A stretch of 63,393 bases of DNA, filler included, from Lenisia limosa (GCA_001655205.1; 12 parts of 12 records of this genome joined end to end with filler, not necessarily neighbours in it), one strand, 5' to 3'. Shown: positions 114-53,900, numbered from the whole stretch's first letter. The notes: a model not told the origin generated them from the letters alone. Numbers and translations are program-made.

Positions 114-3100
114 GCACGTGCATTGGCCACTCTCCATCGAGTCATCATTGAAGGCCACGGAGATGTGGGGGGTTTGGATAACTTTCATTTCCAATATGCA
201 CTCTCACCCCCCCCCCCATATGTTGGAGTATGGGATGCGNNNNNNNNNNNNNNNNNNNNNNNNNNNNNNNNNNNNNNNNNNNNNNNNNNNNNNNNNNNNN
301 NNNNNNNNNNNNNNNNNNNNNNNNNNNNNNNNNNNNNNNNNNNNNNNNNNNNNNNNNNNNNNNNNNNNNNNNNNNNNNNNNNNNNNNACATCTGTAGATC
401 AGGCTCAGGCTCAGGTCAGATTAAAAACATCATCATAATCGGCCCATCTGTGGGGACCTGATGATATATGCGGGGGGAGGGTAGATTCGAGGTGAGTTCC
501 AATTATCCAACTCTAGGAAAAGTTCAACGAAGCTCTCCAGCTGATAGCAACAGTCTTCACCAACGAAACGTCCCCTAGTTTTGTAGCAAGTTGTATTGGT
601 GGGGTGGGGGCTGAATCTTGGGTGCGGTTGAGCGTTGTCAATCGTAACTGTGTAGACGTGATGTTCAGCAATAAGACAATCACTCATGATCTTTTGAACT
701 GGGTAGGCCAGGCGTTTTACTAGTGTGACATTTGGGTAACTATTCCTTCAGAACAATGCCCTGCAATTTCACATTATAAGCAAAACTGCATATGATATTA
801 TGTTTTTGATGGCATATCGAGAAGATTGAATTAGCCTTAAAAATAGGACAGACAATTTATGAGGGGAATAAAGCCCCTGTCGTATTATCCGAATAATATT
901 CCAGGCCCATATCTTCATCATCCTTCTTCGCGTGAGGTTCCTTTCGCTCTACCCTGGACTTGAGGGGAACTTCTCTGTTGAGTCCCAGGTCATATCCACT
1001 TCTGGATGCACAGTGGGGGGTTGTACAATTGTTTAGTGGGTCCTCACCCGGACATCATTTAAAATTATTGGACACATCCAAACTCCCGGATAGCTTGAAG
1101 TTGACACCTTGTATAGGCCAATGTTAGTGTTTTTTAAAAAAAACTGCTTCGACAGACACATAGAGAAATGGACCTCCTAATGTTCCCAACTTTTTTCAAT
1201 TTGGAGCAAATATCAAAAATCTGTGAATTCGGTCTCCCGGGGGTCCTCCTTTATTAGTGTTAAGAAATAAAAATTTGCACCCATCGGTTGGCTGGTGTAA
1301 TGGTGAATTTTGAGAGAAAAATGCTCATAATAGAATGAACTTTCCCAGATAATTGCCATTTATTCCTTGAATGTGGCCTTTTATAACGATTTTGCGTGTT
1401 TTTGACAGTATTTGGACCGTAAATAGAGAGCTTAGGGACTTAATTTGGTTTTGACCCGACAATATATGAAGTAGGCGTTTTATCCTTTGATTAAGATTTT
1501 ATATGGAAAACTCAAGCTGTCCGGGAGTTTTGATGTGTCTGGTGAATTTTGAATGATGTCCGGAGATTTGACTATACATATCGATATATTGTATAGATAA
1601 TATATATCGATATGATATCATACACATAATATACATACATATGATATATGATATATAGATATGATATATATATAATATATATTATGGAAATTGCAACGAG
1701 GGTTTTACCTGGCCAAGCGTACACACCATCACGCTTAGAAGAGATTATATTATATAATAGTATAATATAAACTCACCTAATCATTTGCCTTACAACTATG
1801 TGCACACAGCTTTTTGCGTGCCTCCAGCGTACAATTGTATAATGGGGGGATACACTAGGTGTCTTGTTGAGGATTATTATTTCCTAAGTTTGAATAGTCC
1901 TAACTGTGCAGAATTTGATATCCGTGGAGGCCGCGATCCAACTTCTCGTTCTTCTTGACGCCACCGTCAGTATGTGGGGGTACTATTGATATTATCGTAG
2001 GAGTAGTAGCATGTTAGTATGGATATTATTAGACCTGTATCATGGTTCATTTTACCCAGTGATGGGATGCGGTGCTGCANNNNNNNNNNNNNNNNNNNNN
2101 NNNNNNNNNNNNNNNNNNNNNNNNNNNNNNNNNNNNNNNNNNNNNNNNNNNNNNNNNNNNNNNNNNNNNNNNNNNNNNNNNNNNNNNNNNNNNNNNNNNN
2201 NNNNNNNNNNNNNNNNNNNNNNNNNNNNTTGATTTTGGGCTTTTTTGTTTCATAAATTGTCCAATTTTATCCCCCTCGCTAGGAGTCGCGAATCTCTTCG
2301 TACACCAGGCAATCCCAAGCCCTCTGACGGCGTCCATATCCGTCCTTCTCCTTGCTGATGCTCGGGACTTGTACACTACAACGTGCTTTGTGCTGGCCCA
2401 ATTGTCGTGTAGGCAAAATAACCTTGCAATACAAATCCCCCCCCCCCCCNNNNNNNNNNNNNNNNNNNNNNNNNNNNNNNNNNNNNNNNNNNNNNNNNNN
2501 NNNNNNNNNNNNNNNNNNNNNNNNNNNNNNNNNNNNNNNNNNNNNNNNNNNNNNNNNNNNNNNNNNNNNNNNNNNNNNNNNNNNNNNNNNNNNNNNNNNN
2601 NTTCGCGCACCTCTGCGCTCTACTCCTCAGTTTGTGGGTACCACTGTCGTTATCTGTGACCCGAGGGATTCCATGGGGCAACTGGTTTGGGGATTTGTTG
2701 TTACCTGTTTCTCCAACCAAGATTTAATTACCTGTGCAGCTCAAGCACCAAAGGGAAATCCTGGCGTTCATTGAGACCCCGCATTTACCTGAGCAACCCC
2801 CAGTGTTTTCCCCTGCAACCATCTCCTCGTTCCATCCCACAAAAGTAAACATTACAAATGATTAACCGTTTTATCACCTTTGTCATATCATCCATATGTC
2901 CCCCACTTTGCTTATTTTAATTACATTTCCAATCATCATCATCCCCCNNNNNNNNNNNNNNNNNNNNNNNNNNNNNNNNNNNNNNNNNNNNNNNNNNNNN
3001 NNNNNNNNNNNNNNNNNNNNNNNNNNNNNNNNNNNNNNNNNNNNNNNNNNNNNNNNNNNNNNNATGGCTTTCATCGGAGCCAAGGGGGAGCTGCCGCACT

Positions 3101-3186
3101 TTGAAGACTACGGCACGCCTGACGAGAGCCCATTGTCGTCCACTCCGGCTACTCCTGTCAGAACCGGAAGTGGGGGGAAGGGGTGA
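114..3186 (+). CDS. Multi-exon gene, probable ANTH-domain (Sla2/HIP1/AP180-like) protein; 5' part missing
   Basis: GT-AG exons give ARALATLHRVIIEGHGD (cf. ANTH KaLi.lHrll.eGh), IILLRVRFLSLYPGLEGNFSVE (cf. Sla2/HIP1 Kl.FH..yP.feGnf) and NLISVEAAIQLLVLLD. The last exon ends at 3186. The model is broken by N gaps. Confidence 0.45.
1036..1576. mobile_element. MITE-like family C, copy 1 (intronic)
   Basis: Subterminal inverted repeats of about 60 bp (CCGGACATCATTTAAAATT...CTCCCGGATAGCTTGAAGTTG versus CAAGCTGTCCGGGAG...AATTTTGAATGATGTCCGG). A second copy lies inverted at 7108-7470. Confidence 0.8.
1705..1830 (-). repeat. Dispersed repeat family D
   Basis: Contains CAATCATTTGCCTTACAACT-TGTGCACACAGCTTT-TGCGTGCCTCC-CAGC, shared with copies at 21532, 33431, 36094 and 47756. 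Confidence 0.85.
2058..2282 (+). repeat. Dispersed repeat family B ending at an intron acceptor
   Basis: GTGATGGGATGCGGTGCTGCA...[N]...GATTTTGGGCTTTTTTGTTTCATAAATTGTCCAATTTTATCCCCCTCGCTAG. Confidence 0.8.
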
Positions 3187-3399: not shown

Positions 3400-6300
3400 A
3401 GCAGTTGTTTTCTGACTTAAAAGTTTCTCTAAAGAGAACACATCTCGGATTTGCCCCTCATCTTGTAAAAAACTGAAACACCACTTTCCAAAACAGTGAT
3501 GTTTGCCTTCACAAAAGGCTTAAATAGGTCTAGACAAGGGAGGAGGGAGCGGCTGTGGCGGCGGAGGTTTGGGCTCTTTTCGGCAGAGTGGCACTTAGTG
3601 CGTTGTTTCGTGGCGTGACAGCGCGTCTGGACTGGGCCGTGCTAAGTCCGGCTCGGTCAGGCTGGGTCCTGGGTCGTTATAATGGATTTTGGGATAACTA
3701 CTGAGGGTGATTTAACCTGGTAAAAACTGAAAAGTGATACGGGGGTATTCATGATTTTCCCATGTATCTAGAGCTAANNNNNNNNNNNNNNNNNNNNNNN
3801 NNNNNNNNNNNNNNNNNNNNNTTAATTAATTAANNNNNNNNNNNNNNNNNNNNNNNNNNNNNNNNNNNNNNNNNNNNACCCAGTTGCGGTGTCGATTGAC
3901 TGAAACCGGCAGGATGAACGCGGGTGCTGAACTTGCAATGCCGCTCTAAAGCGTTATAGAGAATACTGCACAGATCTTATCAGACCAAGAGATGTAACCT
4001 TTCATATGAAACCTATGTAGAGTATAATATACTATTCAATATCATATCATATGATATGGTTTTTACATAATATCTATATATATGTCTACATGCATATTGA
4101 CGCAAAAGGCTTACAATTTCGTTTGTCGAGAGCAGACAACCTGAATAGTTAGTAGAGTGTTGGGGATAGGAAGGGGTCCTTCAGGAAAATAACGTGGAAA
4201 AAGAACAAGAGCAAATTCACCCTGGGCCTGCCAATTAAGTTGTTTGATGGCACTCACATTTATCGAAGCTGTTGCAGACGGCTGGAATGTCTCCCAAAGG
4301 CAGTCCTGGGGGTAGTACGATACTGAGGGCTCTGAAGGGTCAGTTCACGTGTTGTGTGATGCGGCAATGATAAATTGAACCTCCCTCCCCTTTATTGAAT
4401 AAAACAATATCAGAGTGAACAAGGGTATTCCGAATACCATACTGCGCAGTTGATTATATATGATATAACTTGCCAAAAATATATAATTTATTGATATAAT
4501 ACTACATGTATATAGCCTTCTGATATGTATGGATATTATCTATAATCGTGATAATTCTATCAGTCCTAAGGCGTAAGACTTCATAGCCTCAGGAAACCCC
4601 GAAAACCTCAGCGATTGGGTCAAATGAAGAGCCACAGCAGGTGTAGGCGGGTACTCTTTGGCTACTCCTACATCGAGTTGGCACAGTTGTTACATTAAAT
4701 AAAAAGGGGATCTTTGAGGGCTTCTAATAATATCGGTCAAGCCCTACAATGTCACTGTATATGCCCACCAACATTGAATTTATCATGAAAAATGGAATTG
4801 TTTAAGAAGTTAATAGGACATCTTTGCAACACTTCCCCCTCATCATCTTGATACATAATTGCTTATTTGGCCGAAAAATGGCCATAAATTATTGCTGTTG
4901 TCCGCCTTTAATGACCCCAAATTGCAAACCCAGATTATAACATAGTATTTCAAAACAATGCCACCAATAATAAAAAAAAGTATGCTACAAATGTTGCATT
5001 CGTATTTGACATTTTTGACATTACCCCCCACTAGCCAGGAACTGAGTGAGCCAAATCCAACGAGAGAGACTGGAACCCGTGCCGCCCAATTCCTTTCGTA
5101 GCGTCATTGAGGCTGAGGGGGGTAACCGAATGTATGAAAGGGAGTGAATGAGAAAAATATAATACTGAAGTCAAAGATAATCTATCCCCACGATCGCGAT
5201 TAAGGGTGGCCCGGGACCCTGTGAGGTCGTAGGGTGAGTCCTTTGGGTCACGTGTCTCTTTGGGATCGTTGAGGTTGCCTTGGCTCAGGAAGAGGCCGCG
5301 GCCATCTCCACTTCCTACACGGGTCAGAACAATTCTAAATGGACCATCTAAATAATGCAACCCGTTGGATTTGTGTATGTTTCATATAGATTCTGTCTGT
5401 TTTCGGATCGAGTAGAAAACCACAGTTATCGTGCAAATACACACTTCATAAGGATACAAACTACACTATGAACACAAAACAAAAAGAAAGGGTTAAATGA
5501 CATTCAACGACGAATTCGCTAATATGGCTTTTGGAACCTCTTACGGGATCACCACCCATTATTGGTGCGCCGCCCCCTGTTGGGGTACCCCTATCTAAGG
5601 TCTTCCTATGAGGAGGCTTTGCTTACCCGGTCTTTCTGACGTTGAAGGTCGCAAGGGGACTAGTGACGTTCGTTGGAAAGTGTTGTTGGCAGTCACGTCG
5701 AGGGACTTGGACTTTGTGACCGGATCTATTGGGACTCGAAGTGGCGTAATTGGGCGTGAAGCAAGGGAGCCTGTTGGGGTGAGGATGCACGTTGATACTC
5801 ATCCTGTTCACAAACACCTTCATATATCATATCACTTTTTGGATCATTTTCACATGTGTGAACTGTCAGTTACGACTCTGATACACTCGGGATAAACCCG
5901 TGTGTTATCTTCGTTCATCATTTCGACTTGAAAGTCGGTCATATGATCATATCACTAGTGGTTATGGGTTAACATATGTAGCTACATTATTAACAAAGTC
6001 CCTTTCACCTGCCGAAGCGGATGCAACGTTATCCTGGATCGGCCTGGGGGGGGGGGTGGTGGNNNNNNNNNNNNNNNNNNNNNNNNNNNNNNNNNNNNNN
6101 NNNNNNNNNNNNNNNNNNNNNNNNNNNNNNNNNNNNNNNNNNNNNNNNNNNGTTCACTCATTCCTCTTTATTAACATAGGATATACGTAGGTCTTTAATT
6201 TGGTCGGAAAAAGACTGAATTTCTCGTTATGACATGTACTTAAAATAACATCTTCGAAAAATATTGATATTTCACTCTTCTTTCTGGAACCGAAGTGAAG

Positions 6301-9300
6301 CCCTATCCAACTCCTCTCACAGGCCAAGGGGGTCCTTTCCACTGGAATCGGGGGACAAGTTGGCTAGATTGTGAGGCAGATAAGTTGATTCTCGATTGCC
6401 TATCAGTCTAACATCCTCTCATGTACAGTTGCATATAATATAGATATATTACTATCGTATCATATTATTGCAAATAGTATCATTGAATACGATATAGTAT
6501 ACATTTATTTATATAAATTTCATATAGTATTATGATGAGGTATGAATACAAGGGATGTATTCAGTGAAGTGAACCAATGGCCTCCACCCAACAGGACACA
6601 TTGGAATCGAAAGAGGTGGCCCTGTTTCGGCCATCTACAGCCAGAGATCCGCCATCAATAAGGGTCTAAATGGTCTTAGGATATCTCTCGATGTTGTTGA
6701 TTAGGGATTGGTTATGATTAAATAGTGAAGCTCTGGAACAAAAAAAAACAAAACAAAACGCTGTGCCAGTATACTAGGATTAAAGAATACGACATATCAT
6801 ATATTTATGGATTATGTAGTATCAATACTGTATACGTGTGTATACTCACAACAGGACATACCTGATTTTCATGACTGAACGCCATTTTCTCAAGCTCCAA
6901 ATCGGTCAAATACTCAATTTCAGCATCGGCCACCAGCTGCAGAACGGACAGCAACTCAATGTAAGACGAGCTCCTTTCTGAGCCCGTGATATATGGCGCC
7001 TCATACAGTCCAAAGACCTGACTAAATCCTCCATGTTTTAGTGAGACTCATTGGTATTAGGCCTCACATATACAACATATTGTACATGTAACTACATATA
7101 CTCTATATATAGTCAAAGCTCCGGACATCATTCAAAATCTCCGGACACATCAACTCCCGGACAGCTTGAATTTGCCCAATAAAAGTAATATGAACTTCAT
7201 TTTCATGTTATTTTCGAAAGTGATTTCAGTCATAATCACAGGATTGAATGCGGTTTTTACATATTCTTGGCTCAAACCCAAATTAAGTCACCTGGCTACC
7301 ATAGATTTAGAAAAAAAGGCAAAAGGGGCCACCCCCGGGAGACCAAATTCACGGATTTTTGACACTTGCTCAANNNNNNNNNNACCATCAAAGGGGTCAA
7401 CTTCAAGCTGTCCGGGAGTTTTGATGTGTCCGGTGAATTTTGAATGCTGTCCGGAGCTTTGAGGACCCACATATACTACATGCTATTCTATTATACTATT
7501 TTGATATATAATATCATAAATACTTATGAAATATGATTATAATATGCATAATACAACAATAACATCATAAATCTGTATAGTAATGAGAAATAAACAAATA
7601 ATTGTATCTGGCCCAAGCCGTCCACACCATCACGCTGATAAGAGATGTTGAAGTATAGCATAATATAGTTATGAACACTCAATCATTATACTATCGATAT
7701 AACATAATATGAAAACTGACAACAGTATACCAACCTTTTCCACCGCTGAATGAGTTGATCAGAGAAGCCTCCTCAATCTCATCAGGAGCTTTGAACGACA
7801 CATGGAACAGTCCCTGTCACGCATTACATACTGGGACTACTATAAACGCTAATAATCAGCATACAAACAACTCCAAATCACAATCAAAAATAAAATATTC
7901 CATGTGCTACGGATAATCTGTAGTTCATAAATAGAAAACCGTACGTCAACATACAAAGTAATGGTCAACAAAGTCCAGTGCTAAAGCATACCTTCCACGC
8001 TTGATGCTGCTGCTCATGATCTGCCTCAGTGTTTTTGTACTAAAGATTGTCAAACCCTAGGTTATGCATTCTTTAATCTCAATTGTGGCTTTTAATCTAA
8101 AACACATCCCATGTATACAAGCTGGATAAACAATCGATAAAAGTAGAGCATATCTCATTTAAATGTGATATAAGAGAAAGTGGACCAACATTATGTAATA
8201 ATATCTAAACGGATTTTGGTGGTCATATATAAGTGAGTATTTGGCGAAGCTGTATTCTTTCATAAATCGTATGAAAAACCCCGTTCTACCTTGCTCAGCC
8301 AGTCACCTGCAGAGGCCAAGGAAAGCGCGATTCTCTCTCCAAGAGGCAGGCAGAACTGGTATGCTACAGAGCCCATTTTGGATGCCTGTTGAACTGCCTG
8401 ATGGGAATGAATAGAGTATTGATGAAGCAGACAAAATAAATTCATTGGTACAAATTCTTGAACAGTGGGGGGGGGGGCTTCAATCCTAAATAGGACGTAT
8501 ATTCATTTTCAGTACTATCGATTGTAAACATACATATAGCTACATAGCTAGGTGTCTATTCAACTAATATTATACAATAACATATGACGATATAGCCCCC
8601 CCCCACTTTGTGTTCTTTGGAGGGTTCGGCCCTTGGGGATGCTGTGGAGGCGGAAATGATGCCCAGGTTCAGGAGGAGTCTGAATGAAGAGGGTTATGTT
8701 CTGCAGTAAGGCTGACATATTTGAACTATGCACATGCACCACATATGATATGGAGAGAAAACATGGGTGTGTATTGTTGGCTTTACACTATAATGCAGGG
8801 TATAAAGCGGTGACAAAGAACTAAAGTACAAACGCTGACCTCTTTAACGTGTTGGATACAATGATTCTCGTAGTGAGAGCTGATTCAAACTAAATTATTA
8901 ATAAAACGATTCGTTATAACATTCAGTGCAGGATAAAATGTTTGGCTTTAGCACCCATCTCCGTTTACATTTCCCCACAGTGATTTAATATTTTCCAGCC
9001 CCCCTCCCCACATTGATTGGCCATTTGAGGAGGGCATTAGCGATCCAATTAACCGATTGCGCTGTCAATTCCGCCTCCATTGGGGCCAGAACCAGAGATG
9101 CCTTGGAAGGTCAATATTTAGAGGTATGGGGGGGGGGGTCAATCTTAGAGAATATATCATGAAATATGAGAAAGGAGTTCTCAGTTCATGTTCCAAACAT
9201 AGTGTTGAGCAGATAGAGAGCCGATTGTCAACTGAATATCATGCAATGATCCTCAAAAACACTACCTTGACACAAAGGTCCTGAAAATAGAGAATTACCC

Positions 9301-10870
9301 CATTATAAGCAACGTGTTTGCTCTTGATTTGCTCAAATCAGAGGCACTGACCTCAACCCACCTCGGCCCATCCTTTGTAAACATCGCTTCGTGAGAGCGG
9401 GTGATCAAGTGAAGACAGAAGCAGATTCGGCTAAAGCGTTCGTTATATTAGGAACCATCCGATTCTTACCAGAGAGTCGAAAGCGCAGCCCTTCAGGAGG
9501 GCAGGGAAGACCACTTCTCGGAAGATCGTCTTCCAGTCCGACATTGTCGAGTCTAATTACGAATTGTTTAACGTTATAATTATATCGTTTCTATACCATA
9601 TTTACTTTTGAGCTTACTTGATTGAACATCGCGGGATTAAAATATTCTTTAATATATATGAATGCCGGGGGTTAAAGAGACCTAGCGATCTCCTGGAAGA
9701 TGATTTATGAAGGTCTTGGAACCAAGCTGACAAAACTAAGTCCTCGCGAGTACAGTGTCCCAAATATCAGTTCAGTATAGTGTCCCAAATATCAGTGCGA
9801 TTCCTGGCAGAATACTTTGTAAGCTTTCAAGCATTAAAATATCGGAGTAATGTGACACAGCAGGTTAGTGGATGTAAAACTACATTTGAGAAGAAACAAT
9901 AACTTAGATGGGTCTAAAATAATGAGTTTTGGACATGGCGATTTGATGGCTATGGAAAACAAAAATACAAATTCGAAAAAGGAATAAGTGGTAACATGAG
10001 ATAATAATTGACAGGTTATGGCAAGAGGCACACCTCTCCATCCAGGAAAAGAATGTACTTGAACAAATAATAACTCATGGTCTTTCATTTCTTCTGAGTA
10101 AATAAATCTCGCAGTGTTATTGTCTGTTTACCTTGATCAAGATATGTTAACAACAACGAAACAGAGCCCCATACCTATTCCTTTTGAAGGTCGTGGATTG
10201 CCGATCGTAGATGGGGCAGTGCAGGGTGCTCAACAAGGTCCTAACCCAAGTGAACAACATATCTGACGCACAAAAATAGACAACAAGGAGAATGAAAAAC
10301 CCAGGTCCCACCGGTCCGTTATAGGGCGGATCCACTGCCATGTCCTCCGGCGACAGCTCAGGGGGGATGGAGTCGGCAGGGTCAGAGTCATGCAGAGCAA
10401 AGTGGTATGCGTAGCAAAAGTCGGAGGAGTCGACCATAGGAGCTGTCAGGTGCGCAATATTGGACTGGGGGGGGGGGGGGNNNNNNNNNNNNNNNNNNNN
10501 NNNNNNNNNNNNNNNNNNNNNNNNNNNNNNNNNNNNNNNNNNNNNNNNNNNNNNNNNNNNNNNNNNNNNNNNNNNNNNNNNNNNNNNNNNNNNNNNNNAA
10601 TATTCTGAAACTCCAAAAAAACAAAAAACAAAAAACAACAAACATGAACAATTAACGCTAAAACTAGACAAAAGCCAGATGACAAAAACACAAAAACAAA
10701 AACAAGCCCGAGACAGCCTTGGCCAGTCAGAATTTCCCCGATCGTTTGAAATACCCTTAATAACATGATGACATGGGGCCCTTAATAACATGATGACATG
10801 GGGTGCTTTAGCTTGATGCTTCAGGTTTCGTTTCCACGTTCATACCAAGGCCTTGTCCACTTCATCAGGA
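3400..10870 (-). CDS. Large multi-exon hypothetical gene, partial; may continue across the 3778-3877 linker
   Basis: Many minus-strand GT-AG exons with open frames, e.g. SNIAHLTAPMVDSSDFCYAYHFALHDSDP, NITLFIQTPPEPGHHFRLHSIPKGRTL, QVFGLYEAPYITGSERSSSYIELLSVLQLV and GLFHVSFKAPDEIEEASLINSF. No family recognised. Confidence 0.4.
3778..3877. other. Artificial assembly linker N44-TTAATTAATTAA-N44
   Basis: The same 100-bp spacer occurs at 3778, 10874, 35642, 39134, 43485, 44642, 47566, 49664, 53932, 58052 and 62161. It carries stop codons in all six frames. Confidence 0.97.
5835..5968 (+). repeat. Dispersed repeat family E, copy 1
   Basis: CTCTGATACACTCGGGAT-AACCC...TTATCTTCGTTCATCATTTCGACTTGAAAGTCGGTCATATGATCATATCACTAGTGG, near-identical to 23940-24104 and to the reverse complement of 36724-36935. 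Confidence 0.9.
6200..6310. mobile_element. hAT-type MITE family A copy
   Basis: AAAAGACTGAATTTCTCG core and GGAACCGAAGTGAAGCCCTA terminus, shared with about 10 copies. Confidence 0.75.
7108..7470. mobile_element. MITE-like family C, copy 2 (inverted relative to copy 1)
   Basis: TATAGTCAAAGCTCCGGACATCATTCAAAAT...ATTTTGAATGCTGTCCGGAGCTTTGAGGACCCAC. The internal CAAAAATC-GTGAATT-GGTCTCCCGGGG is shared with copy 1. Confidence 0.8.
7580..7650 (-). repeat. Family D partial copy
   Basis: AATGAGAAATAAA...GTATCTGGCCCAAGCCGTCCACACCATCACGCT. Confidence 0.75.
10755..10803. repeat. 25-bp tandem duplication
   Basis: CCTTAATAACATGATGACATGGGG occurs twice. Confidence 0.85.
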
Positions 10871-11139
10871 GAGNNNNNNNNNNNNNNNNNNNNNNNNNNN
10901 NNNNNNNNNNNNNNNNNTTAATTAATTAANNNNNNNNNNNNNNNNNNNNNNNNNNNNNNNNNNNNNNNNNNNNAGTATATATAAATGTATTTTACTTTTC
11001 TTTTTGTAATATTTTTTCACCATATTTATAATATCATATCATATACTGTTTATGCAACTTGGGGTATACTAAAGCAAAGACGAGAAAATGCAAGGCAGAA
11101 ATTAACGCAGTAGTTGGATGGCGAATATCGCAGTTTGGA

Positions 11140-14100
11140 GTACAAGAGCTGGAGGTCGGCCCTAACCGTGGATGTTCAACTGGTAGGCTGAAGGTCAAAA
11201 TTGAATTCTGCTTTTTCGCTAAAATATGAATTTAATAATACCTATTTTGATGGTCAAGTTACGAGATTGTGGCATGTTTATTTGGACCACTTCTCTCACC
11301 AAATAGGAGACGTGATGCTGATTTTGTCTTCTGTGGATTTGGATGAGGATGAAAGTTTACTCTGTGACATGGACGAGGAAAGTGACCTCACTCAACTTCC
11401 GAAAGGCTCTTTGGTGGTCTTCTTATGGCAGGGTGAAGAAGCCGAAATGGTGAGTATGAGCTGTCCATAATCACACTCCCTATAGGATAAGGTCTCCACG
11501 GGCCTGCTCTATGCCAGCCAGTTGTCGAGTTTAGTACACGCGTCAGGCAAGTTGCAGAGGGAGATGGAGGGGCAAGAGAGCGTAGCCTTCCTTCGGACCT
11601 TTCAATACGACTTTGTAGTGCTTGACAAAGAATATGGTGGGGGTAAAGCTTGATAAAGAATATGGTGGGGGTAAAGCTTACTCAGGAATATGGTGGAGAT
11701 AATGGTGTCTGAAAGTTAGCTAACCTGGGCAGCCGCGCCCAGTGGATTTGTTGAGGTGTCAGCACCGACCGCAGTCGGCCGTGTTTACCAGGTCTTTGGT
11801 CGCCGGTCAATGGCTGTTCGCTTACTTGACCCAAATGGTGGGCTATCTCGGATGATGTCTTGCTGCGGCTTCTTCATGAAGATATTTACTACACAGCCNN
11901 NNNNNNNNNNNNNNNNNNNNNNNNNNNNNNNNNNNNNNNNNNNNNNNNNNNNNNNNNNNNNNNNNNNNNNNNNNNNNNNNNNNNNNNNNNNNTACAAGAT
12001 TTGGGTCATTTTTGGCCACAAAGCCAGCCGTGCTGAAATTGCCCGAGTATGGAACTTCTGACAAAATTAATCACTATTATATTTTTTTTTGGATCATTTT
12101 TATGTTGCCTCGTCCGCGATTCTCATTCCTCAGGCTCAGTTGCTTGCAGGAGAATTCGCAATGGAACGACGAAAACCGGAGAAAGAAGGGGGTAAGCTCT
12201 ATCCCAGACCTTCTGATGGACAAACACCCTCGATCATTTCTCAGCTCTGCGTACCGGGTCGCAAAGAAGGGATCTCATCGAAGCCCCCCTTGCAGACATT
12301 GCGAATGCGGTACGGATGCACCACCATTTGATGGTCACTTACCATATTAGGAAACCCTGTCAGAGATTTTGGAACTACTCCAGGTAGAGGCCGACTATTT
12401 TGATGTTCCGATGGACTTCGAAGAAGATGAATCCGAACCGAAGGAATCCGCCGCTCAAATTGCGTCGCGCGCGGCAGTGGCGCATTTGGCGTCATGTCGC
12501 CTATACCGTATCGATATCCTATCATCACACATTGAATTGACGCAAGTTGGCGGGGGGTATTGAAGCTCCTCTTTTGTTAGTTCTTCATGACATTACAGAT
12601 GGTGATACCGCTGACAAGAGCCTCGATGGACACCCGGCATTGCTACATTCTGCATGCCGGCGCCTTGGTGTTCTACTGGCTTGGGTTCAAGGCTGGCATC
12701 TCTGACAAGGTCGCAGCTGAGCGTCTTGCCACTGTGGGCCGGCCCGGGGGGGGGGGGNNNNNNNNNNNNNNNNNNNNNNNNNNNNNNNNNNNNNNNNNNN
12801 NNNNNNNNNNNNNNNNCGATATTTCACATAATACTGGTAAACAGTTCTTCACTTGGGACATTTCGCCTTCCCTTCTGACTTTCTGCATTAGGCGTTCCCA
12901 ATGTTGGTGCACAGTAACCCATGGATGGACGTGATTCGAACGGGCGAATCGTACGAGTCGGCCCTCTTCACTTCACAGTTCTCCTCTTGGGACCTCAGGT
13001 AAGCCCGCTATTGTCGGCCTCATACTGTTTAGGATGGTGGAAAAAGTTGAGTCTGACCAGCCTGAAGGTTTGGGGGTATTTCAAAACATAAAATTGATCT
13101 CTTTGCCATTCACCTCCCTGCTCACATTCCAGTTCTTCCACCCGAGATTCCGCCCATTCATGCGGACGAATTCCTTCGATATGTCCACTCCGCTGGTAGG
13201 CGAGGCTCTGCTTGTCTTCGGAAAGTGCTTGTCTCTAACGGTCTAGAACCAACGGATAGTAACAACGGAGTAAACTCAATGGCTGACCTTTTGCGCTATG
13301 TGGGGAGGAGGTCCAACATTCGCTTCCTTTATATTCCACATTTGTTACTAACCTGCACTAGAAGCCCAAAACTCCGGGACACAGCAACTTGGACAGTTTC
13401 AGTAGTAGCTTCATAAGCCTGAACGATTCCAAGAAGGGCAATGCTATTTCCGTATGTCGAGATAATAGGCGGTTTTCAATTACAATTGTAACATCACTTT
13501 CGATATTTCTATAATAGAGAACAGCGTTAAAAGTTTTTATTTTACGCTTTAGACCGTGTCATCACCCCACCCTCCTTCCTTTGCTGGTATGTTACGTTTG
13601 AGATTTGTCTTTTATTCCCACCATCTTCAAATTGGAATGTTTCTGACATATCCAGCCTTAGCAGCCGCACGCAGTAATGGTGTAACACCCATTGCTTCCG
13701 CCTCCACAACCCACCTCCAAAGCTTCTTAAATCCACAGACTCAAACATCGTGAGCCCTTAGTTCATGTTTAACGGTTAAGCCTTCCCTTCCCTCTTCCCA
13801 TCCCCACTCCAAGTGAAGATGAAGAACGAATACCCGTACCAGACAGGCTTCCTGATGACATGCAGGTTGGCCTCAAGACCATCTGATTCAACTCTTTAAT
13901 CGAAGAGTATTCTATTGGACCTCTATTGAGCCTTTTCACTCCTTCCCCTTTCCCAGGTTCTTGTGGTGACGTCTAGCGGATTTGGCGGCCTGCCGGAGGA
14001 GCAATGGGGCTGTCTTGTCGGAAATGAGGTGTGCCTCTTGAATATGATAGTGTCAATTCATATTCCTTTTTTAATTTCAGAACGTTTTTTTGAAAGAAGG

Positions 14101-17100
14101 AATTGAAAGAGTTGCTTCAAATTTAACAATGCAGAACTCCTTTCTTCACCACCTCCCCCCCGCTGGGGTGATGGGATGCGGTGCTGCAAAAGCGACTGGC
14201 CTGGGCTNNNNNNNNNNNNNNNNNNNNNNNNNNNNNNNNNNNNNNNNNNNNNNNNNNNNNNNNNNNNNNNNNNNNNNNNNNNNNNNNNNNNNNNNNNNNN
14301 NNCATAAATTGTCCTTTTACCCCCCCCCCCCAGGCCCACGTAGTGATGGCGACTTGGCGCACGGAAGTGACAAAGGAGCCGTCAGAGAGTGCGGACAAAT
14401 GGGACTACATGCAATCTGACGACGAGTTGGAATCGATTATCGAAGAAGAGGAGGAGGAAGACGAAGTCAAATATGAATGTGGGGAGGGGAGAGGAGGATA
14501 TTATCAAAAAATATTAATATTTTTCGTTGATTGTAATGATACAGGTCATGTTTTCCTCTGGCTTGGTATTCACACAGTGGCAACTGTCCGAGCCCGTTAC
14601 GACTTAGAAGTTGGCACTATATGGAATTTCTAATCTCTAGGTGTACCCCCTTCTTCGGGATAAGTTCGAATCAGAATTCAACACAACTCCAGTGAAGGTA
14701 TGGCGCGAAGTCCCCTAAAACACTAACCATCCAGCACTACATCCATGCTCTCCAGGAACCAGAGTTTTTCCTTGACTTCTTCCCTTTCAGAGTATATACA
14801 AATGTAAGCTGATTTGAGTCGATTTGAACAGGCCATTTTTGATTCCCTTTCTAACTTCTCAGGCACCACCACACCCAGACACCACAATGTTCCATTTACG
14901 TGGCAAAGGAAATAGACTTTCTGCAGTTCAATGTCACCCGGTGGGAATGGGGGACCCTGATGATACCAGCCTAGGGTATTCTGCTGTTGTGTTCTGACTC
15001 TTTAGCACACCGCTTGTCTCATTGAGAACGAGTGCTTTGTTCTGGTCTACTGGGATGGCCTCACCGAATTCGTTTGTGGACTGTTTTGACTTAGATTACG
15101 CACGCGTACAGTACCTTTTTCTATTTCTGCCTGATCACGAATAGAGTAACTTTGTAATTGTAAACATGAGGCAACTTTTGTCATTCAGGGGATAGTATGA
15201 ACGTCCGCAGTTTCTACTGTCTAAATTGTTCACCTTGAACATTTTGTGGCACGGATTTAATAGCATTATATCTATATAATCAACAATAGAAACTTCGCTT
15301 TACCCCCTCACCTCGTATTCATCAACTTGGTTATCACCTCCACAGGAAGCCGAACAGAGCCGCGAACGAGAGAAGGAGGAGGCCGAGAGGCTTGAAGAAG
15401 AGGCCAGAGTACGTGCGCTTCTTGAGCCCTCCGATTATGAGGATGAGGAAGGTGGCATGGATGAAGAGGGTTATATGGGTGAGGAAGACCAGATTGGAGA
15501 TGATGTGGAAGAAGAAATTGAAGAAGAATTTGAAAAAGAAGTTGAAGTTGAAGTAGAATTTGAAGTGGAAGAAGAAGCTGATGATGATGTTGATCGTCCT
15601 GTTCACCCTGCTGCAAGGAAGGTTAGTGCGTCTGCTCTTTTGGTATATACCAAGAATTATTTATTTTCCTCACAAATTCGTTTTTGTTTTCTGACTTTTC
15701 CACATAGTATGTATTTCTCTGTTCCAGTCAGCTACACTTGACGATTTAGATTGTGGTGTGGCGAGGGCGCAAATGTGCGCGTACAAGGTATGCCAAAAGC
15801 CTGCTGTTTCCTGTGTTATGCTCTAGATTTGTTGATGCACAGGAGTTCGTTGACCATAGGAGGGAAATGGTATGGGAGTGTTTTCTTTGTGACTTGCCCC
15901 CCCTCCCCTCTCACCACCAGCTTGAATCATGTGTGTCCACGCGGCCAGATCTGACGGATCCAACCAGAGCCTCGCCATCTCCTCTCCACGCCTTATTCGC
16001 TCCTGCATCCCATTTCCTCTCCGCTGTCTCCGTAAACGACTCAAAGTGCGTCCACTGCTTTGTTGCCTTCCTCACAGTTGTCGCATTTAAACTGAAGCAA
16101 ATCTTCATATCCCCCTCCGCAGCCCCTCAGACGGTTCCGACTCTGAAGATGACTCCGACAGCGGATTCCGCACTTCGGTCATCGAAAGGCACCCGCCGTC
16201 ACCACCTGATGCTGAGGTTGCTGCCCCCTCGTCCTCGCAGGGAACCAAAGTATGCGAAAAGAGCTGAAGTGATTGAACAGTGACAGACTTTTTCAGTAAA
16301 TTTGTTATGCACTTCCTGTTCCAGACTGCTTTGTTTTCTCGTTCCATTTGTTTGACCCTTGCAGGCGCACAATCTTCTGGCCACTTTTGAGCCAGATTCG
16401 AAGCTCGAAGTGAGTTAATAAACGAGGCTCAACGGCAACCTTTACACAACTTACAATGTTGATTTGTAGCTTCTGTATTCACCCCCTTCCCAGGTTCTGA
16501 GTTGGCCTGTCGATTTAGTGTCGGATTTGGAAGAGCCTAAATGGTTCTGGCAAATTTTACAAGGTACGTGGCGAGTGTTTCTGCATTTCGTTCCGACTTG
16601 CACAACAAGCGAGTCTTTTGATTAGTACAAGTAGATGCTCCTTTTGGTAATCGGACATTATCCGTAGATCCTGACGATTTACCTCCCCCAGGCGAGCCAG
16701 CTGAAGTTGTTCGAAAAGCTATAGTGCCACAAGTGCCACCCCGAGTATTCATCGCCAAGTACAACGGAATTTCCTTTACAGTAGGCCTCACATCATTGAA
16801 TCACCCCCAAAAGCGTCGTTGAAAGAAATATCAGTATATTCGTATATGGACCACAGCAAAGTTCTCATCTCGCCCTCCCCCCCCCCCNNNNNNNNNNNNN
16901 NNNNNNNNNNNNNNNNNNNNNNNNNNNNNNNNNNNNNNNNNNNNNNNNNNNNNNNNNNNNNNNNNNNNNNNNNNNNNNNNNNNNATACCGGGGTACAGGT
17001 GAGGGGCTCGCTTTGGCCCCAGGTCTTTCGAGATTGTCTCCAAAGCAGAGGATTGGGCTTTGTGACGTCTGTTGACACCCCAGATTGTGGTGTGGCTTGG

Positions 17101-17394
17101 CGATCAGGCAAAACCACGTGAAGTGGAACTCGCATCGGCTGCCGCTCTCGTGGGGGGGATTAACGAAACATCCCAAGCAAATGATGGCTTGAATTGATTT
17201 GCTCTGTCTTTGTCTCACATCCAGGCGTTCACGTGGCTTGACGGCCGAAAACAGGATACCGTGTCCTTCTGTCTGTCGTCACAGAAGCCGCCACCTTCCT
17301 TCCTTGCTGCCTTCCATGGGTGCGTTGCAATGGTTCTCTCGTGTTCCATCCCTCTTCTCAAGGCTTATCTGACCTTTCTAGGTGGATGTTGTAG
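11140..17394 (+). CDS. Gelsolin/villin/supervillin-family actin-binding protein (multi-exon; start uncertain)
   Basis: Several gelsolin-repeat motifs in spliced exons: VIPLTRASMDTRHCYILHAGALVFYWLGFKAGISDKVAAERLA, GESYESALFTSQFSSW, LPEEQWGCLVGNEAHVVMATW, GHVFLWLG, MFHLRGKGNRLSAVQ, IVVWRG, EEPKWFWQIL, PPRVFIAK, IVVWLG and KPPPSFLAAFHGWML*. Confidence 0.8.
11620..11697. repeat. 28-bp tandem repeat (about 2.7 units), intronic
   Basis: GCTTGA(C/T)AAAGAATATGGTGGGGGTAAA repeated. Confidence 0.8.
14161..14333 (+). repeat. Family B copy ending at an acceptor of the gelsolin-like gene
   Basis: CGCTGGGGTGATGGGATGCGGTGCTGCAAAAGCGACTGGCCTGGGCT...CATAAATTGTCCTTTTAC-C-run-CAG|GCCCAC. Confidence 0.85.
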
Positions 17395-17506
17395 CTTTTT
17401 CTTAATGGTATTAATTATTATGTGTCGTTTTACGTGAGGTAAATGGATTGCTTAAGGGATGTTTCCAAGAGGGCAAAGAAAGGAACATGACATCAATAAA
17501 TAAAGT

Positions 17507-18534: not shown

Positions 18535-19139
18535 TTTTCTGGTAGTTGTCGTTGGAAAAATGAAAAAAAAAAAACACGCACAAAAAGATGGATCTTTCAG
18601 ATCAGTAACCTCTCGGTTCACTCCCGCCATTTCTCCATTTTTTTCTCTCTCTCTCTCCTTCCATTCAGTCCCAATTATTGATACCAACTTTTTTGTTGGA
18701 GACTGACAACTGACAAGTGCTGGACGAATTGACCCCCCCCCCCTAATTTCAAACACAGCATTTTTCAAATGATGAACCCATAGCTTACTTGACCTCCAAG
18801 TGGTGTTTCATAGAGAAGTAAGAGATATATTGGTGTAATAATTAATGTGACGTCTTTCAGATCAACTTTCCATTTATGGCAGTTTACGTTTTCTTATTGC
18901 TTTTATATTCGACTTCTGGGCGTTTATTCATATTGCTGTTTCCTTTCAGTTGATTTTACCCACCAAGTTGAAATTTTATACAGTGTTATTTATTTTGTGA
19001 CAATCAACCTAAACCATCCTCCATTTTGCATCCACATTGGCATTTCCGTTTCATAGTATGCTTTTGACGTTGAACCTTTCTTGATTGTGCATCGTTATTG
19101 GAGACATATCTCTTGACATTCCCTCTCTCACCCTTCAGA

Positions 19140-38905: not shown

Positions 38906-38929
38906 ATAAATTGGACAGTGCTAATGAGC

Positions 38930-41857: not shown

Positions 41858-43200
41858 ATGTCGAAAACGGACGAACAAATCTTGCAAAGTGTAAGATTGT
41901 CTCAATCTGTGCCCATCTTCTCTGAGTGGGTCTCAATTCGAAATGTTGAATCAAGGCATAACACAGGACTTGAGGTAAGGTTAAGTTTTTGGTCTTTTTT
42001 GTCCCTATTGCCTGCTAATGGTCTCAGGTTGGCTTTTTAGATAAACATCTGGAAAGCTATCGTGTTTCCGGGCGAGGAGAACTTGTTTGGTGGCTTCTGA
42101 AGGTCGGTGTACCTTTTGACTTTTTTATTCATGAGGTTTATAGCTTGCTGAGTTCTACTCTTTGCCGTCTGAGGTTGTCTATCTTACTGTAAACTATTTC
42201 GATAGGTTTGGGGGACTTTGTTGATTTGTTTGTTTTCATCTTAGGAAACAACGTATAGCGCCTTTATGATGCTTGGCTACTTTTAAACTCTGTAAAACTA
42301 CACCATTAAAGGGATTATCTTCATGATTGCCCTCAACGAGATAGTCAAAATTCAACTTCACGACTATGTCGTTTTAATCTCCTTAGGATTCTTCTGAAGA
42401 TGCAGTTAACTCCTCCTGAAGCTCAGACTGTCGCTTTGGTGTCCTTAATTATCGCAAGCAAAGTGTGGCTTCCTAAAGGTCTCCCATCACGAACTGCGGC
42501 CAAATGTCTCGGGGGAGATTCGACCACTACAAGCTGTAAGGCGGGGAATACCGAAAAACTTCTTCTTTGAAGGGCTATCTAAGCCAACTTTTGTCAGCTG
42601 GATTTTCCCGTCGTCAAAGCTGGCAAGCTCCTCAGTTAAGGCATTCTTTTGCGTTGTTTGAATTAAATCGAGTGCTTTTCTTTCTATTCTCCTCTTCCAA
42701 ATGTCTTTCGGGTTGAATTTCTTCTACCGTTTTCCCCTCCTCTTTATTGACGCTTCAGTGTTGATCAAAACGGAGTATCAAATTCTTACCGAGCTGAACT
42801 GGTCTGTTGTCGTGCCTCCTCCTCATATCTTCGTAAGCAATTGGGTTTCTGGCCGAACGATCATGTCACCTTTTCCTTCTCTCTCAAGTTTCCACCTAAA
42901 TCTTCACCTTTCTCTGCCGCCTTTTGAATTTGGATCATCACTATGGTTTTGGGGCTATGGAGGGGATGTGCTTTTGGTTTTGTCAATTCAATTCCCCGAA
43001 TTGTTCTCCGTGGGATCTCCTATCTGCCCAACCCCAGGCTTTTTTCTACGTATGTACAAGTTTTCATCACATACTTTGGAGTGATAATAATTTACTCACT
43101 TTGATTATTGCCGTATTACAGACTTTTTTTTCCATTGACAAAGATGCACATTGTTTACCCCTGTCCAATATTCTTCATCGAAATATCCTTTGTTTTCAAC
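41858..43200 (+). CDS. Cyclin-box protein; 3' end uncertain
   Basis: Spliced GRGELVWWLLK-VYSLLSSTLLPSEVVYLTVNYFDR-ILLKMQLTPPEAQTVALVSLIIASK...LIKTEYQILTELNWSVVVPPPHIF matches the cyclin N-terminal fold. Confidence 0.8.
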
Positions 43201-43340
43201 CGCTGGAGTGATGGGATGGTGCTGCAGAAGCGACTGGCCAGGCTTTGTTTGTTTTGTTGTTACCAACCCTTGTGTGTTGGCAGCCAACAGAGTTGATTTG
43301 GGATTTTTTTGTCACATAAATTTTCCAATTTTACTCCCCC
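43201..43340 (+). repeat. Family B, only gap-free copy
   Basis: CGCTGGAGTGATGGGATGGTGCTGCAGAAGCGACTGGCCAGGCTTTGTTTG...GTTGGCAGCCAACAGAGTTGATTTGGG...TAAATTTTCCAATTTTACTCCCCC. Confidence 0.88.
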
Positions 43341-46680: not shown

Positions 46681-47500
46681 ACCTTCCAAAACAAAGCCTC
46701 CCTTTATGTTCCAAAGTAGCTGCCGAGGCATGAGAATTGCAAGATAGGAGACTTACGGCATAGTGCGTATATTTGAGTGACTAAAAACTCCGCAATCGCA
46801 ACACGCATCTCGCTGTTCGCGAGCTCGTTAATCATAACGAATCTAAGGCTGGAAAATCGCACAAACTGCTTAAAGTAGTTGTACATCTACCGAAATTTGA
46901 TAATACCTAGATACTAATATCAATGGTTGTGACACAAACAATCGTGGTCTTTGAACAGGTCATATGCTGAAGCATTCACTTCTTGGTGTGCTGTGCGACA
47001 AGACCTGGCAAAGAACCAGTAGTCCTGTTCGAGAAAGAGGCAAGCGAGATGCTTGAACGACAATGCCCCGATGAAGAGGGTTTTATAGTTTTAAAAAAGA
47101 TAAACCTTTCAACTTACAATACGTTCATCGCGAGGTAGTTAGTGTAGAGCACAGACATTGTTGTCCAGAAGTAGGATTCTGTCTGGCCAGGACATGCCGA
47201 AGAGAATATCATCAGATTTCGGGTAAAGAGCCCAATTACCATGCAGTGAATAGCTTCTACCCCTGCGCACAGAAATAACCTCCTTGACAAAACTCTGGTA
47301 AATTTCGAATACCACTACAGTCAGCTTCACAAGCACTTGTACAAATACAAACAAACTGGTCGGCATCAAAAGGTGGAATAACCAGAAGCTTCACAATTGC
47401 AGCGATCCAATTCACCACTTCCATTACCTTATCGTTTATTTGCCTTACAAGCATGGAGCCCCTACTGTCAGCATTTTTATAAGTAATCTTCATAACTCGT
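46612..47500 (-). CDS. Hypothetical multi-exon gene, 3' part
   Basis: GT-AG exons VMEVVNWIAAIVKLLVIPPFD, SYSLHGNWALYPKSDDILFGMSWPDRILLLD, DYWFFARSCRTAHQEV and ATLEHKGGFVLEGL...VEAIL*. Confidence 0.35.
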
Positions 47501-47533
47501 AGTACTCCATGAATTTACCAACCCCTCCCCTTA

Positions 47534-47565
47534 CGCTGGAGTGATGGGATGCGGTGCTGCAGAAG
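47534..47565 (+). repeat. Family B 5' end at contig end
   Basis: CGCTGGAGTGATGGGATGCGGTGCTGCAGAAG followed by a linker. Confidence 0.8.
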
Positions 47566-47665: not shown

Positions 47666-47850
47666 AAATATCGATAGTTTTCGAGGATTTTTATCCAGAA
47701 ATGCAGTCTTTTTTCGAACCAAAGTGAAGCCCTAGGTATATGAATAATGAATAATGTATGCTGGGGAGGCACGCAGAAAGCTGTGCACACAGATCTGTAA
47801 GTACGGCTTTGGCCAGATACAACCTTATTTTTTATTTCTCATTGCTATAT
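47666..47850. mobile_element. Adjacent family A end (to about 47735) and family D copy (47756-47850)
   Basis: TTCGAACCAAAGTGAAGCCCTA, then GTATGCTGGGGAGGCACGCAG...CTCATTGCTATAT. AATAATGAAT flanks the D copy on both sides. Confidence 0.8.
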
Positions 47851-48424
47851 AAATAATGAATGCTAGTATCATATTATGACATACTTGATCCAAAATGTTG
47901 AGAGGGGGTCCAAATCGTATTATCTAAACTTATATTTAGGATATTGGGGGGTCCATGTTTCAATATCCTGTTATAATGTTTCATAGCTTCTGGGCTCTGT
48001 ATTTCTTATCCCCAACCTAAAACATGGTACGCAGTAATCACCCTAGATCCCTCCGTATTACCAGCCCTACCCTGGCCACTTAGGTTTTGTCCCCGTGGAC
48101 CCAAGACAGGTAGGTGTCAAGTGGAAAGGTTTTCAATGGAGCTTCATTTTTGATTCTTAAAAAGACTGAATTCTCGAGAAATCCCCGATAATTTTAGACG
48201 TCTTTTGGAACCGAAAGGGAAGCTCTAGTTTTCATTAAGGGTGAACCAATTGTTGCTGCATTGATAATAAATAACATAATTCGAGGTATTAATTTGGATA
48301 AACTGTCCAATAGTCTTAATATCGAGAATTTACTTGGAGCCATTGAAGCCTAAGTTCTTGGTTGATCTTTCACTACTCTCTTATTAATTGTTCTCCTTTT
48401 CCAGCTCTTTTCACATTTTGTTGT

Positions 48425-48494
48425 TATCAACTCTCATTTGTTGTTAGCCAACAGGGCTTTTTTGTTTTATAAATTTTCCAATTATACCTTGCAG
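48425..48494 (+). repeat. Family B 3' part ending in AG
   Basis: AGCCAACAGGGCTTTTTTGTTTTATAAATTTTCCAATTATACCTTGCAG. Confidence 0.7.
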
Positions 48495-48629: not shown

Positions 48630-49223
48630 CAGCAATAGAAAGCCATAACAGGACAATTAAAAGTAATAACCTCCTCAAAGGCGTAAGGCGCCTCGACTAT
48701 GGGAAATAAATCGTCAGAAGAGGGGTGGGCTGGTCGCGAATGCAGTGAAGTGACCAGGGTCAAACACAGACAAGGACAAGAGCTCCATGTCCGTCCTCCG
48801 AAGTAAAGAACACGGGGAACACAACAAAAACAACAACAACATAAAAACAATCGGCCCACAAGATGACTGGGGTCTTTTCGACGTGAGATGACCCAAGCTT
48901 TTCTGTTCTTCTGCAGTGGAACACTATCTGATGAGTATGATAACCATCACAGAGCCAAAACACTTCAAAGTATTGTTTAACTCAAAAACAAACCCCCAAT
49001 AGCCCAATATGAGCATCAACAACTTCCTCAGGTTTAGAAAAGCATCGTTCTTACACATCTTTTTTGGAAAACGAACCCATCTATCAAGAATCCGAAATTT
49101 CTCGATGGCATCATTTGATGGAGTACCACGAAGCATGTTGTCCTCGAGGGGCTGCATGTCCACAGCGGCCAAAGCTTCAACAAGGGGCAAGTTCAGATTA
49201 ACTTTTTGAAGGGTTTCCTTCAC
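48630..49223 (-). CDS. Hypothetical gene
   Basis: Open frame LPLVEALAAVDMQPLEDNMLRGTPSNDAIEKFRILDR followed by a GTGGG donor and further small exons. No family recognised. Confidence 0.3.
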
Positions 49224-49974
49224 ACAGCGAGTTACGTTATTATCACACAGCTAAAGACTATCAGACATGTAATAATAAGGATCAATCAATATTAGAAGAC
49301 CGAAAAGCAAACGAGAAAAGGTTAACAAGTTATCTTGTACATGGTTCTGCTCTTGATTCTAGTTTTCAGCTCCTTTCAGCATGTTTGTCACTCCCTCTCC
49401 CATTGTTTTCATGGGTTTTCACTTTGTTCTAAAAATGATACATTGTTTTTGATATTTGCTGAATATTTATCGAAATTCAGTTTTTTTTGCTCCCAAGTTT
49501 GTTCTTCCCTTCATTCCGAAAAAGGAATGAGGTTCTCAAAAAATCTTGGATAATTATCGACATTGTCTTGTTTTACCATATGATGTTAAGCATATCCTAT
49601 ATATATATAGGTGGGGGGACATGACCGTGTCCAGGGACATGACCGTGTCCACTTTTTTTTATTNNNNNNNNNNNNNNNNNNNNNNNNNNNNNNNNNNNNN
49701 NNNNNNNTTAATTAATTAANNNNNNNNNNNNNNNNNNNNNNNNNNNNNNNNNNNNNNNNNNNNGGGGGGGGGGGTCAGCGAAATAAGATGGACAGCAGTA
49801 ATTATGGCAAGATCTGTGGGGCTTCACTCTGTCCCAAAAATATCGGTAAAACACCGGTAAAATATCTATATTTAATGCTTTTTTGGTAACGAAGTGAAGC
49901 CCTTAGTTGTAAAAGACCGTTTATTAAAGATATCATATTCACATTAATTTGTCTGATTCAGCCAAAAAGGGGTC

Positions 49975-52900: not shown

Positions 52901-53900
52901 ACACATTCGTCATCGGGCGGCGTTTCCGCATCCACGTCCTCGGGAGGTAAAATTGGAAAATTTCTGAAACAAAAAAAAGCCCCAAATCAACTCTGTTGGC
53001 TGAATGCGGAATGAGAATGGATAATCGCAGCTCGTGCCTGATTGAAAGATGCCAAATACATATGATATATGTATATATAAAAACTCTGATCAAATAGGCC
53101 ATTTTGATTTTTAATATTTGCAGGAATCTAGTCAGTGTTGGGAAAGTAGATGAAATAATCATTGAAATCTAAAAGTGCGCGGCCTACAATTGCGTTGTCG
53201 CCATCAAGATCATCTGGATCAGATCGAAGCGGCCCATCGGAACCTTCAGAAGCCTGGGAGGTGCCGGCATTGGGTTCATTGACGAGTGGCTCGGAGGGAG
53301 AGCTGTCAATATCATCATTCTCCGGGTCGGATACCTGAATGCCGTTATTAGTTATTTTGTAGAGTACACTGCATGATGTAGTGGTGGATACACAGGATAA
53401 CTGAAGGTTCGAAATGAGCTCATAATACAAAGTCCAGGATTCCCGCCGTATGAAAGTTCAGCATACTGGTTGTGACCGTTCCTCTGAGTGCAGCGACGTG
53501 TCATCTGCATGGTGAGTTTGGATGTAACGTACACCACAATCCCGAAGGAGCTTACTGGTCATTGGTCGGTGGGTATGTAGCGGAGGAGGGGAGGGGAACT
53601 CGAATTGTCCAAGAACGTCTTTGATCACCCCGAGCATTTCGCTGGTTGAGAACTGCGGACCATTAGACAGCAACAAAAAAAAAAAAAATAATAAAAAAAA
53701 TCTGAGAAAAAGAAAAATACACAGAACTATAGATCAACACAAGTACCCTCAAATCTCACTGTGTAGAGGGTAATCCAATTCGCTCACCTTATACGAAGAC
53801 GAGAGCTTCGGAAGGAGAGGCAGCGAGTCGGCGATGAAGGCCACTGCTCCGGTCACTTCGAAGTACAATGAACGCCGTCGGTCAATTTGGGGCTAAACCA
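49975..53900 (-). CDS. Divergent dynein heavy chain-like gene, C-terminal region (stalk return to AAA5/AAA6), partial
   Basis: WREWYESEKALKTDLPSDWRSISAERFLLLVKALR|PDRY (dynein W..wy...P...W....F..Lll.r.lRPDR), LSELDPFEDLPSDII, and RALRSGLWMVV (cf. G.Wv.LqN). Confidence 0.6.
52939..53000 (-). repeat. Family B 3' part ending at an acceptor of the dynein-like gene
   Basis: The sense strand reads CAGCCAACAGAGTTGATTTGGGGC-T-run-GTTTCAGAAATTTTCCAATTTACCTCCCGAG|GACG. Confidence 0.75.

Follow-up and report, generated by a model that had tools for sequence, protein, structure and literature searches.

The repeat family that we call B very probably replaces the branch-point end of introns that already existed, and the positions of its copies suggest that it sits between the branch point and the AG of the host intron. 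The window (the whole stretch of DNA that was analysed, 63,393 nucleotides) is a gapped scaffold with 54 N runs (4,393 N), many of which lie at C-run acceptors. Its source is an intron-dense eukaryote, and likely a flagellate because an IFT80 gene (Pfam PF23335, PF23387) and a dynein heavy-chain-like exon (PDB match, E 0.004) are present. The gelsolin, RPA OB, MORN and kinase gene names used here are based on Pfam, and ANTH, OsmC, RRM and ORC5 are names that we presume from motifs. Two public runs were used: X1, which contains all sampled words of the window and is possibly the run that the assembly was made from, so that it is not independent, and X2, a polyA RNA run that shares a fraction of 0.17 of the sampled words. 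RNA mapping covers 10974-22690 of the window, and the B-bearing contigs of the RNA run were left out, as they may be unspliced RNA or DNA.

The original prediction named a repeat of about 140 bp at seven sites, and each of the seven is recovered by head or tail HMMs built from the window copies of B (starts at 2058, 14160, 19249, 43200, 47534, 48417 and 52947-53004(-)), with no match in a reversed-sequence control. B is ~145 bases long; the sole complete copy inside the window is 43200-43334, several others being interrupted by N runs, and the copy at 14160 is full length according to a public gene call (P0001) that reads through it. Two further core copies, both found by eye, are the head at 219-239 and, at 37655-37673(-), a middle piece of 17 nt; additional tail-only pieces lie at 62851(-), 59771(-) and 38561(-). 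The tail pattern matches the window 10 times, some matches overlapping, against 1.1 expected.

On the plus strand, the head at 219-239, whose first base is not G, lies directly behind a branch-point-like motif and a C-run in an intron with its donor at 165 (+), in a gene that we take to be ANTH-like; the remainder of this copy, which was recognised from its sequence with no HMM match, falls in an N run. A 5'-truncated B at 2058-2282 stands behind TTTTAC and CCC and runs through its tail to an AG at 2281-2282, with an open in-frame join to the donor at 1970. The full-length copy in the gelsolin-repeat gene (PF00626; 14160-14333, donor 14029) ends at the AG at 14332-14333, and a further 5'-truncated copy (19249-19281) lies in an RNA-verified intron from 19210. 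At 43163-43340 a tail of the related module G is followed by the complete B, with no AG directly behind it; at 47505-47565 a decayed tail-like stretch and a C-rich spacer lead into a B head that a contig join cuts; and at 48416-48494 a 5'-truncated B behind a TTCAC motif reaches an AG (48493-48494), the putative acceptor. On the minus strand, 37481-37702 holds a G-module tail, a truncated B, an N run, a C-run and an AG (37481), in an intron with its donor at 37833 that splits an RPA OB domain (the PF16900 match covers positions 38-79 of 98 and stops at this donor), and a 5'-truncated B in the dynein-like gene (52939-53025, donor 53187) ends at a GAG, the modelled acceptor. Also on this strand are a B tail with C-run and AG directly ahead of a MORN-repeat exon (62835-62880), a B tail recognised by tail pattern and HMM, behind which come a pyrimidine spacer and then an AG (59760-59801), and a short B-like tail ahead of an acceptor in an RPA1-like gene (38553-38577).

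As predicted, no copy is clearly antisense: 9/9 core window copies are sense to gene calls (one-sided p = 0.002), and so are the three tail-only pieces. The strand of host genes was assigned partly by eye, with Pfam, PDB or RNA backing for the copies at 14160, 19249, 37673 and 53025 and weak backing for 43200; a motif-count strand caller, which is noisy and was contradicted by RNA at the 18.8-20.3 kb gene, played a supporting role only. The gene around 47534 and 48417, presumably ORC5-like, gave no identification by Pfam or PDB. A sense orientation by itself does not set B apart, because family C, which has the start GTAYGCTGG in common with B, is sense-biased too (five copies in the same orientation as the gene, one opposite, one unplaced). 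This bias of family C, the orientation bias known near exons in mammals (PMC3088655, in the text available) and the G-run and donor-like GTAAAA end that an antisense B would bear are what random insertion would predict if selection left only sense copies near the acceptor. We consider this reading very improbable: sense copies in mid-intron, presumably harmless, should far outnumber those in a tail of ~10 nt, yet a branch motif stands just upstream in 7/9 copies; antisense copies persist in family F (opposite to the gene in 2/3 copies) and in family C (1/6); and mammalian elements are, in the same available text, depleted rather than enriched near exons, whereas B is concentrated at acceptors.

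Four copies had been proposed to run into an AG that serves as acceptor (2282, 14333, 48494 and 52939). All four AGs are present, and in-frame joins back those at 2282 and 14333, whereas at 52939, where the GAG is followed by a low-complexity exon, the join is open but homology support is lacking. Since 54% of arbitrary positions on the sense strand have an AG 5-19 nt further on, an AG alone is weak evidence of an acceptor. Joins are open at 2282, 14333, 37481 and 52939, and an X2 RNA contig joins exons across the B-containing intron from 19210, its acceptor being inside the N run that directly follows the visible part of B. At least this one B intron is RNA-verified among the 15 joints listed of a longer set; the 14333 junction is absent from the same 15, which is no evidence either way. 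Some copies do not adjoin an AG (43200; L012:111, ~65 nt upstream of one; L012:3753, which has a second decayed B behind it), and C-runs are common at acceptors where no B is visible. Because the spacers between the TTTTAC of B and the AG differ in length and letters from copy to copy, the AG probably belongs to the host intron rather than to B.

As a genome-wide proxy we used prokaryote-style gene calls on public contigs, spurious calls that read through B. The 175 proteins were pooled from 40/42 candidates, the best 150 of 303 representatives and 8/9 in a second frame, a protein-level sample drawn mostly from one frame and skewed towards open frames and heads of full length. A proline run, which corresponds to the C-run, follows B in 125/175 ORFs, and the 50 ORFs lacking it were excluded from the count of the residue behind the run, which is Q (CAG in frame) 32 times and H (as an antisense GTG donor would give) 8 times in these 125 (p = 1.8e-4). 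By comparison, Q comes next in 8/157 proline runs elsewhere (p = 1.4e-6), and C-runs of the window taken without regard to strand give a Q:H ratio of 10:11 (p = 0.018). Gene calling favours open frames, but this bias can raise Q only where Q is the start of a coding exon. Pfam matches, found in 8/175 ORFs, all lie downstream of B (8/94 vs 0/78 upstream, the 78 being ORFs with at least 30 residues upstream of B; p = 0.008); they comprise kinesin, V-ATPase a, PRT6_C, UNC-93, two ankyrin, cyclase and WD40, with 6/8 located no more than 10 residues from the first proline run and 2/8 behind a second tail. Immediately ahead of the first G-run downstream, V stands in 13 of 43 cases and L in 4 (sense donor versus antisense acceptor, p = 0.049). 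The proxy shows that coding exons begin right behind the B tail.

Upstream, the distance from donor to B is 39-306 nt in 7/7 placeable window copies, none of which begins at the donor itself; the donor at 19210 is RNA-verified. YTNAC, which we take as the branch-point consensus, occurs no more than 20 nt upstream of B in 7/9 window copies (null 0.15, p = 4e-5; null 0.24 for pyrimidine-rich windows, p = 9e-4). The motif TTTAC..CCCC had been noticed ahead of at least two copies and taken as a hint of a terminal direct repeat; the pattern is thus broader than first noted, and is better read as the branch-point tail of the host intron or of an older B. Upstream of B the ORFs look like intron (F/I/L/Y 0.35, n=83, compared with 0.21 on the downstream side, n=97), proline upstream of heads stands at 0.26 at position -1 and ~0.07 further up, and tail-like peptides occur just upstream of 40/90 heads compared with 41/180 control windows. 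The head junction falls 0 to ~10 nt behind the branch motif, on a base that is mostly C or T. The host introns appear to predate B. The earlier suggestion that B replaces intron 3' ends is supported by sense orientation, acceptor adjacency and the older branch-point-like motif upstream, whereas its companion, that B is an Introner and creates introns, does not hold for the copies seen, none of the seven starting at a donor and no Pfam match preceding B in the 78 ORFs. It is conceivable that B was a true Introner once, making whole introns in exons or at acceptors, and that its copies afterwards fused with adjacent introns and decayed; the GT..branch..AG anatomy, the sense-only placement and a copy number as high as that of Introners would fit, and remnants and nested or merged IEs are described in canonical Micromonas introns (PMC3879977, in the portions available). 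We find this history distinctly improbable, given where the placeable copies begin, the intron-like upstream flanks and the AG|GT junction, which is expected for insertion at an acceptor and fits 1/30 heads. The same count rules out insertion of B exactly at the host AG.

The anatomy of B is that of an intron: it is non-coding, starts with GTAYGC and ends with TTTTAC and then a C-run. Its 5' end is defined, with 61/123 ORFs beginning at reference position 0-1; for a G before TACGC, the head read in three frames gives 11 informative residues in favour, 1 compatible and 6 against, and of the window heads extending to the 5' end, 0/4 retain GT. Truncation at the 5' end with a fixed 3' end is seen at 2058, 19249, 37673, 48416, 53025, L012:3753, L012:5348 and L013:491. 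B is old: identity among 8 DNA copies is 56-83% (28 pairs), median residue identity to the reference is 81% (167 ORFs), and near-identical young copies were not seen among them. It is also abundant, with at least 303 protein representatives at E<=0.001, which makes it a multi-copy family. X1 depth over B bins reaches 32,697 and 21,584, against ~33-42 for unique DNA, from which a copy number of roughly 4,700-7,300 follows, although depth summed over contigs is not a true count of copies; the density in the window, 9 copies per 59 kb, agrees with a high copy number. The genome likely holds thousands of copies.

Several other classes of element were rejected. B is not a snoRNA or other Rfam RNA, as its fold is no better than that of shuffles (z -1.16) and an Rfam scan gave nothing at gathering thresholds and one chance match (E 2.7). 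SINEs are non-autonomous elements with a fixed 3' end bearing a simple-sequence tail, variable 5' truncation and a tRNA-, 7SL- or 5S-derived head with Pol III boxes. B has the fixed 3' end and 5' truncation in common with them, but its head is neither tRNA nor Rfam (ARAGORN found no tRNA), none of 14 B-box matches falls inside it, and a C-run replaces the A-tail; a tRNA-SINE is ruled out accordingly. So is a TIR MITE, B having no terminal inverted repeats and the complete copy just an internal 7-nt hairpin. True coding sequence is ruled out as well, the ORFs being single-contig gene calls whose B part has no Pfam match.

The tail pattern also led to eukaryote-like stray contigs, L012-L014, in a bacterial MAG (G001), which have a GC content of 0.38-0.40 and repeat families in common with the window. 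Their B pieces are 10/10 on the plus strand, with none in a reversed control. At L012:100, immediately after a TTCAC motif and the decayed tail of another B, the sequence is GTATGCTGG, so that the GT start is seen in DNA in this one case. The copies at L012:5348, L013:163 and L013:491 end at a C-run and AG ahead of open exons, the L013 gene being galactokinase-like (weak PDB match, E 1.3). B is stacked in tandem (3 pairs in L012; 6/100 ORFs), and in the stack L012:3753/3838 conservation is better in the copy that lies upstream, contrary to the expectation that the newer copy lies downstream. A head-pattern scan found no match in viral contigs or prokaryote genomes, and its 2 matches in metagenomes are both chance, within bacterial coding sequence.

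We put at about even the chance that B spread as reverse-transcribed copies of excised intron RNA into the tails of other introns. Such retro-copying is the best fit because the 5' end is donor-like (GT), the 3' end is a branch motif, copies are truncated at the 5' end and the junction lies in the host lariat tail; the absence of GT from all four window heads, the six contrary residues and the copies that do not adjoin an AG count against it. A source copy would be a complete GT..AG intron, although no exon|GT..AG|exon source was found among the B copies examined. The RNA excised from it would use its TTTTAC/C-run end to pair with the similar ends of other introns, priming cDNA there and giving insertion between the host branch point and the AG. 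The insert would supply its own branch point, so that the host intron would still be spliced and the insertion tolerated where other elements would fail. The internal GT would later often be lost, and each B tail would form a new target, yielding stacks and no new intron.

B might instead be a non-autonomous DNA element whose mobilising enzyme is specific for site and strand and recognises TTAC or the C-run; the likeness of B's ends to those of an intron would then be a by-product. That family C carries the same GTAYGCTGG start in both orientations, as if it were the end recognised by one enzyme, speaks for this, as do Replitrons, which like B show orientation-specific insertion with a short motif directly repeated at both junctions (PMC10288648, in its available text). 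We nevertheless think it unlikely. B lacks a terminal inverted repeat and is frequently truncated at a 5' end opposite a fixed 3' end, no transposase Pfam match was present among the window ORFs covered by partial scans, and the junction follows the branch motif by 0 to ~10 nt, mostly after C or T and not after RG, although the RG rule is specific to Replitron-1 (PMC10288648, same text). DNA-level repair of breaks at fragile C/G runs, copying the 3' ends of other introns with B as the runaway winner of conversion, would account for C-runs at acceptors without visible B and for module G, which has part of the B head in common, ends introns as B does (HMM match at 10466-10735(-), with an N run, a C-run and an AG after it) and occurs intermingled with B in 16/175 ORFs. 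DNA copying would not halt at a GT donor-like boundary, yet half of the heads counted above start there, and we hold this explanation to be highly improbable.

Returning to spread through intron RNA, a bolder form of it, which we think quite unlikely, is that the head junctions are fossils of spliceosome chemistry, in which a trimmed lariat tail was ligated to a 5' splice site, reverse-transcribed and recombined back thousands of times. Processed intron circles, in which the intron lariat spliceosome joins a trimmed lariat tail to the intact 5' splice site, have been described (PMC11146597, in the sections available), and their junction resembles that of B in shape (branch motif, 0 to ~10 nt, GT). 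Unlike B, these circles are rare RNAs and not genomic repeats, yeast trimming stops at a tail of 15-20 nt, and intact circles would not be expected to give copies truncated at the 5' end, as far as the available text describes them.

Introners, as the portions of the literature available to us describe them, resemble B in being multi-copy, short, non-coding, gene-sense and equipped with splice signals, and their TIR-less class likewise has no TIR. B differs in reaching the 3' boundary only, in not altering the number of introns at the copies seen, and in an identity between copies of 56-83%. Introner pipelines demand similarity at both exon-intron boundaries and drop insertions into existing introns (PMC9860276, PMC12130899, in the text available), and for these reasons we do not file B as an Introner; the copies seen fail as one, although B may be descended from one. 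Reverse splicing has been proposed for Micromonas IEs (PMC4540971, available in part). Our searches of the open-access literature found no family placed like B, and supplements may list such families.

The pattern of B is, going by the available descriptions, what Introner surveys discard as secondary insertion. A family homing one-way, and in stacks, to the bases between branch point and AG would be an overlooked spread of intron sequence, a route for it to multiply without making new introns, and B-like homing would homogenise 3' splice signals genome-wide. Such a family would also supply junctions by the thousand for testing RNA-mediated intron mobility, a long open question. If the junctions are indeed fossils of the spliceosome, they would document, on a large scale and for the first time, how intron RNAs made by the spliceosome overwrote the ends of other introns.

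RNA joints confirmed eleven introns between positions 17500 and 20340 of the window (eight on the plus strand and three on the minus strand), whose donors are degenerate, several of them beginning with GTT, and in which the distance from branch site to AG is seemingly short, at about 7-12 nt.

The window holds other repeat families besides B, the intron-shaped repeat found near intron 3' ends. Module G (10600-10735 on the minus strand, 43163-43196, and 37675-37700 on the minus strand) shares part of its head and the same TTTTAC end with B but has a different middle, and the two are stacked in both orders. The palindromic, MITE-like families A and D (36431-36490, 47666-47741, 58152-58230 and 63170-63240; 38107-38168 and 58488-58550) are present in many introns, some copies being followed immediately by a B tail. 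The three copies of family F (36727-36886 on the minus strand, 5855-5975 and 23949-24108) are 92-94% alike; the one sense copy has its 3' end at an acceptor in the RPA1-like gene, and the other two are antisense.

Long stop-poor stretches, seemingly without introns, lie on the minus strand at 32300-35400, 46800-47500 and 48630-49330; a Pfam scan of these stretches returned no significant match, and they are possibly decayed transposons. Contigs L012, L013 and L014 of the bacterial metagenome-assembled genome G001 are intron-rich and eukaryote-like and carry repeats of the window organism, and they are likely binning contamination.

Some other copies of B in the genome have the head tandemly duplicated internally in units of about 40 nt and 21 nt, as seen in the public run X1 at window position 14164-14207 and in the read-through ORFs P0090 and P0093. 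Among the 32 variable-length, non-linker N runs of the whole window, 12 adjoin a sense-strand C-run, and many are close to B in length; they may hide extra B copies or may be homopolymer dropouts.

Family C and B have the GTAYGCTGG start in common. The 5' end of one family C copy (21532-21629) coincides exactly with the donor of an intron in an RRM-type gene, with an in-frame join; other copies are mid-intron, and one is antisense. Family C may be a donor-side counterpart of B.
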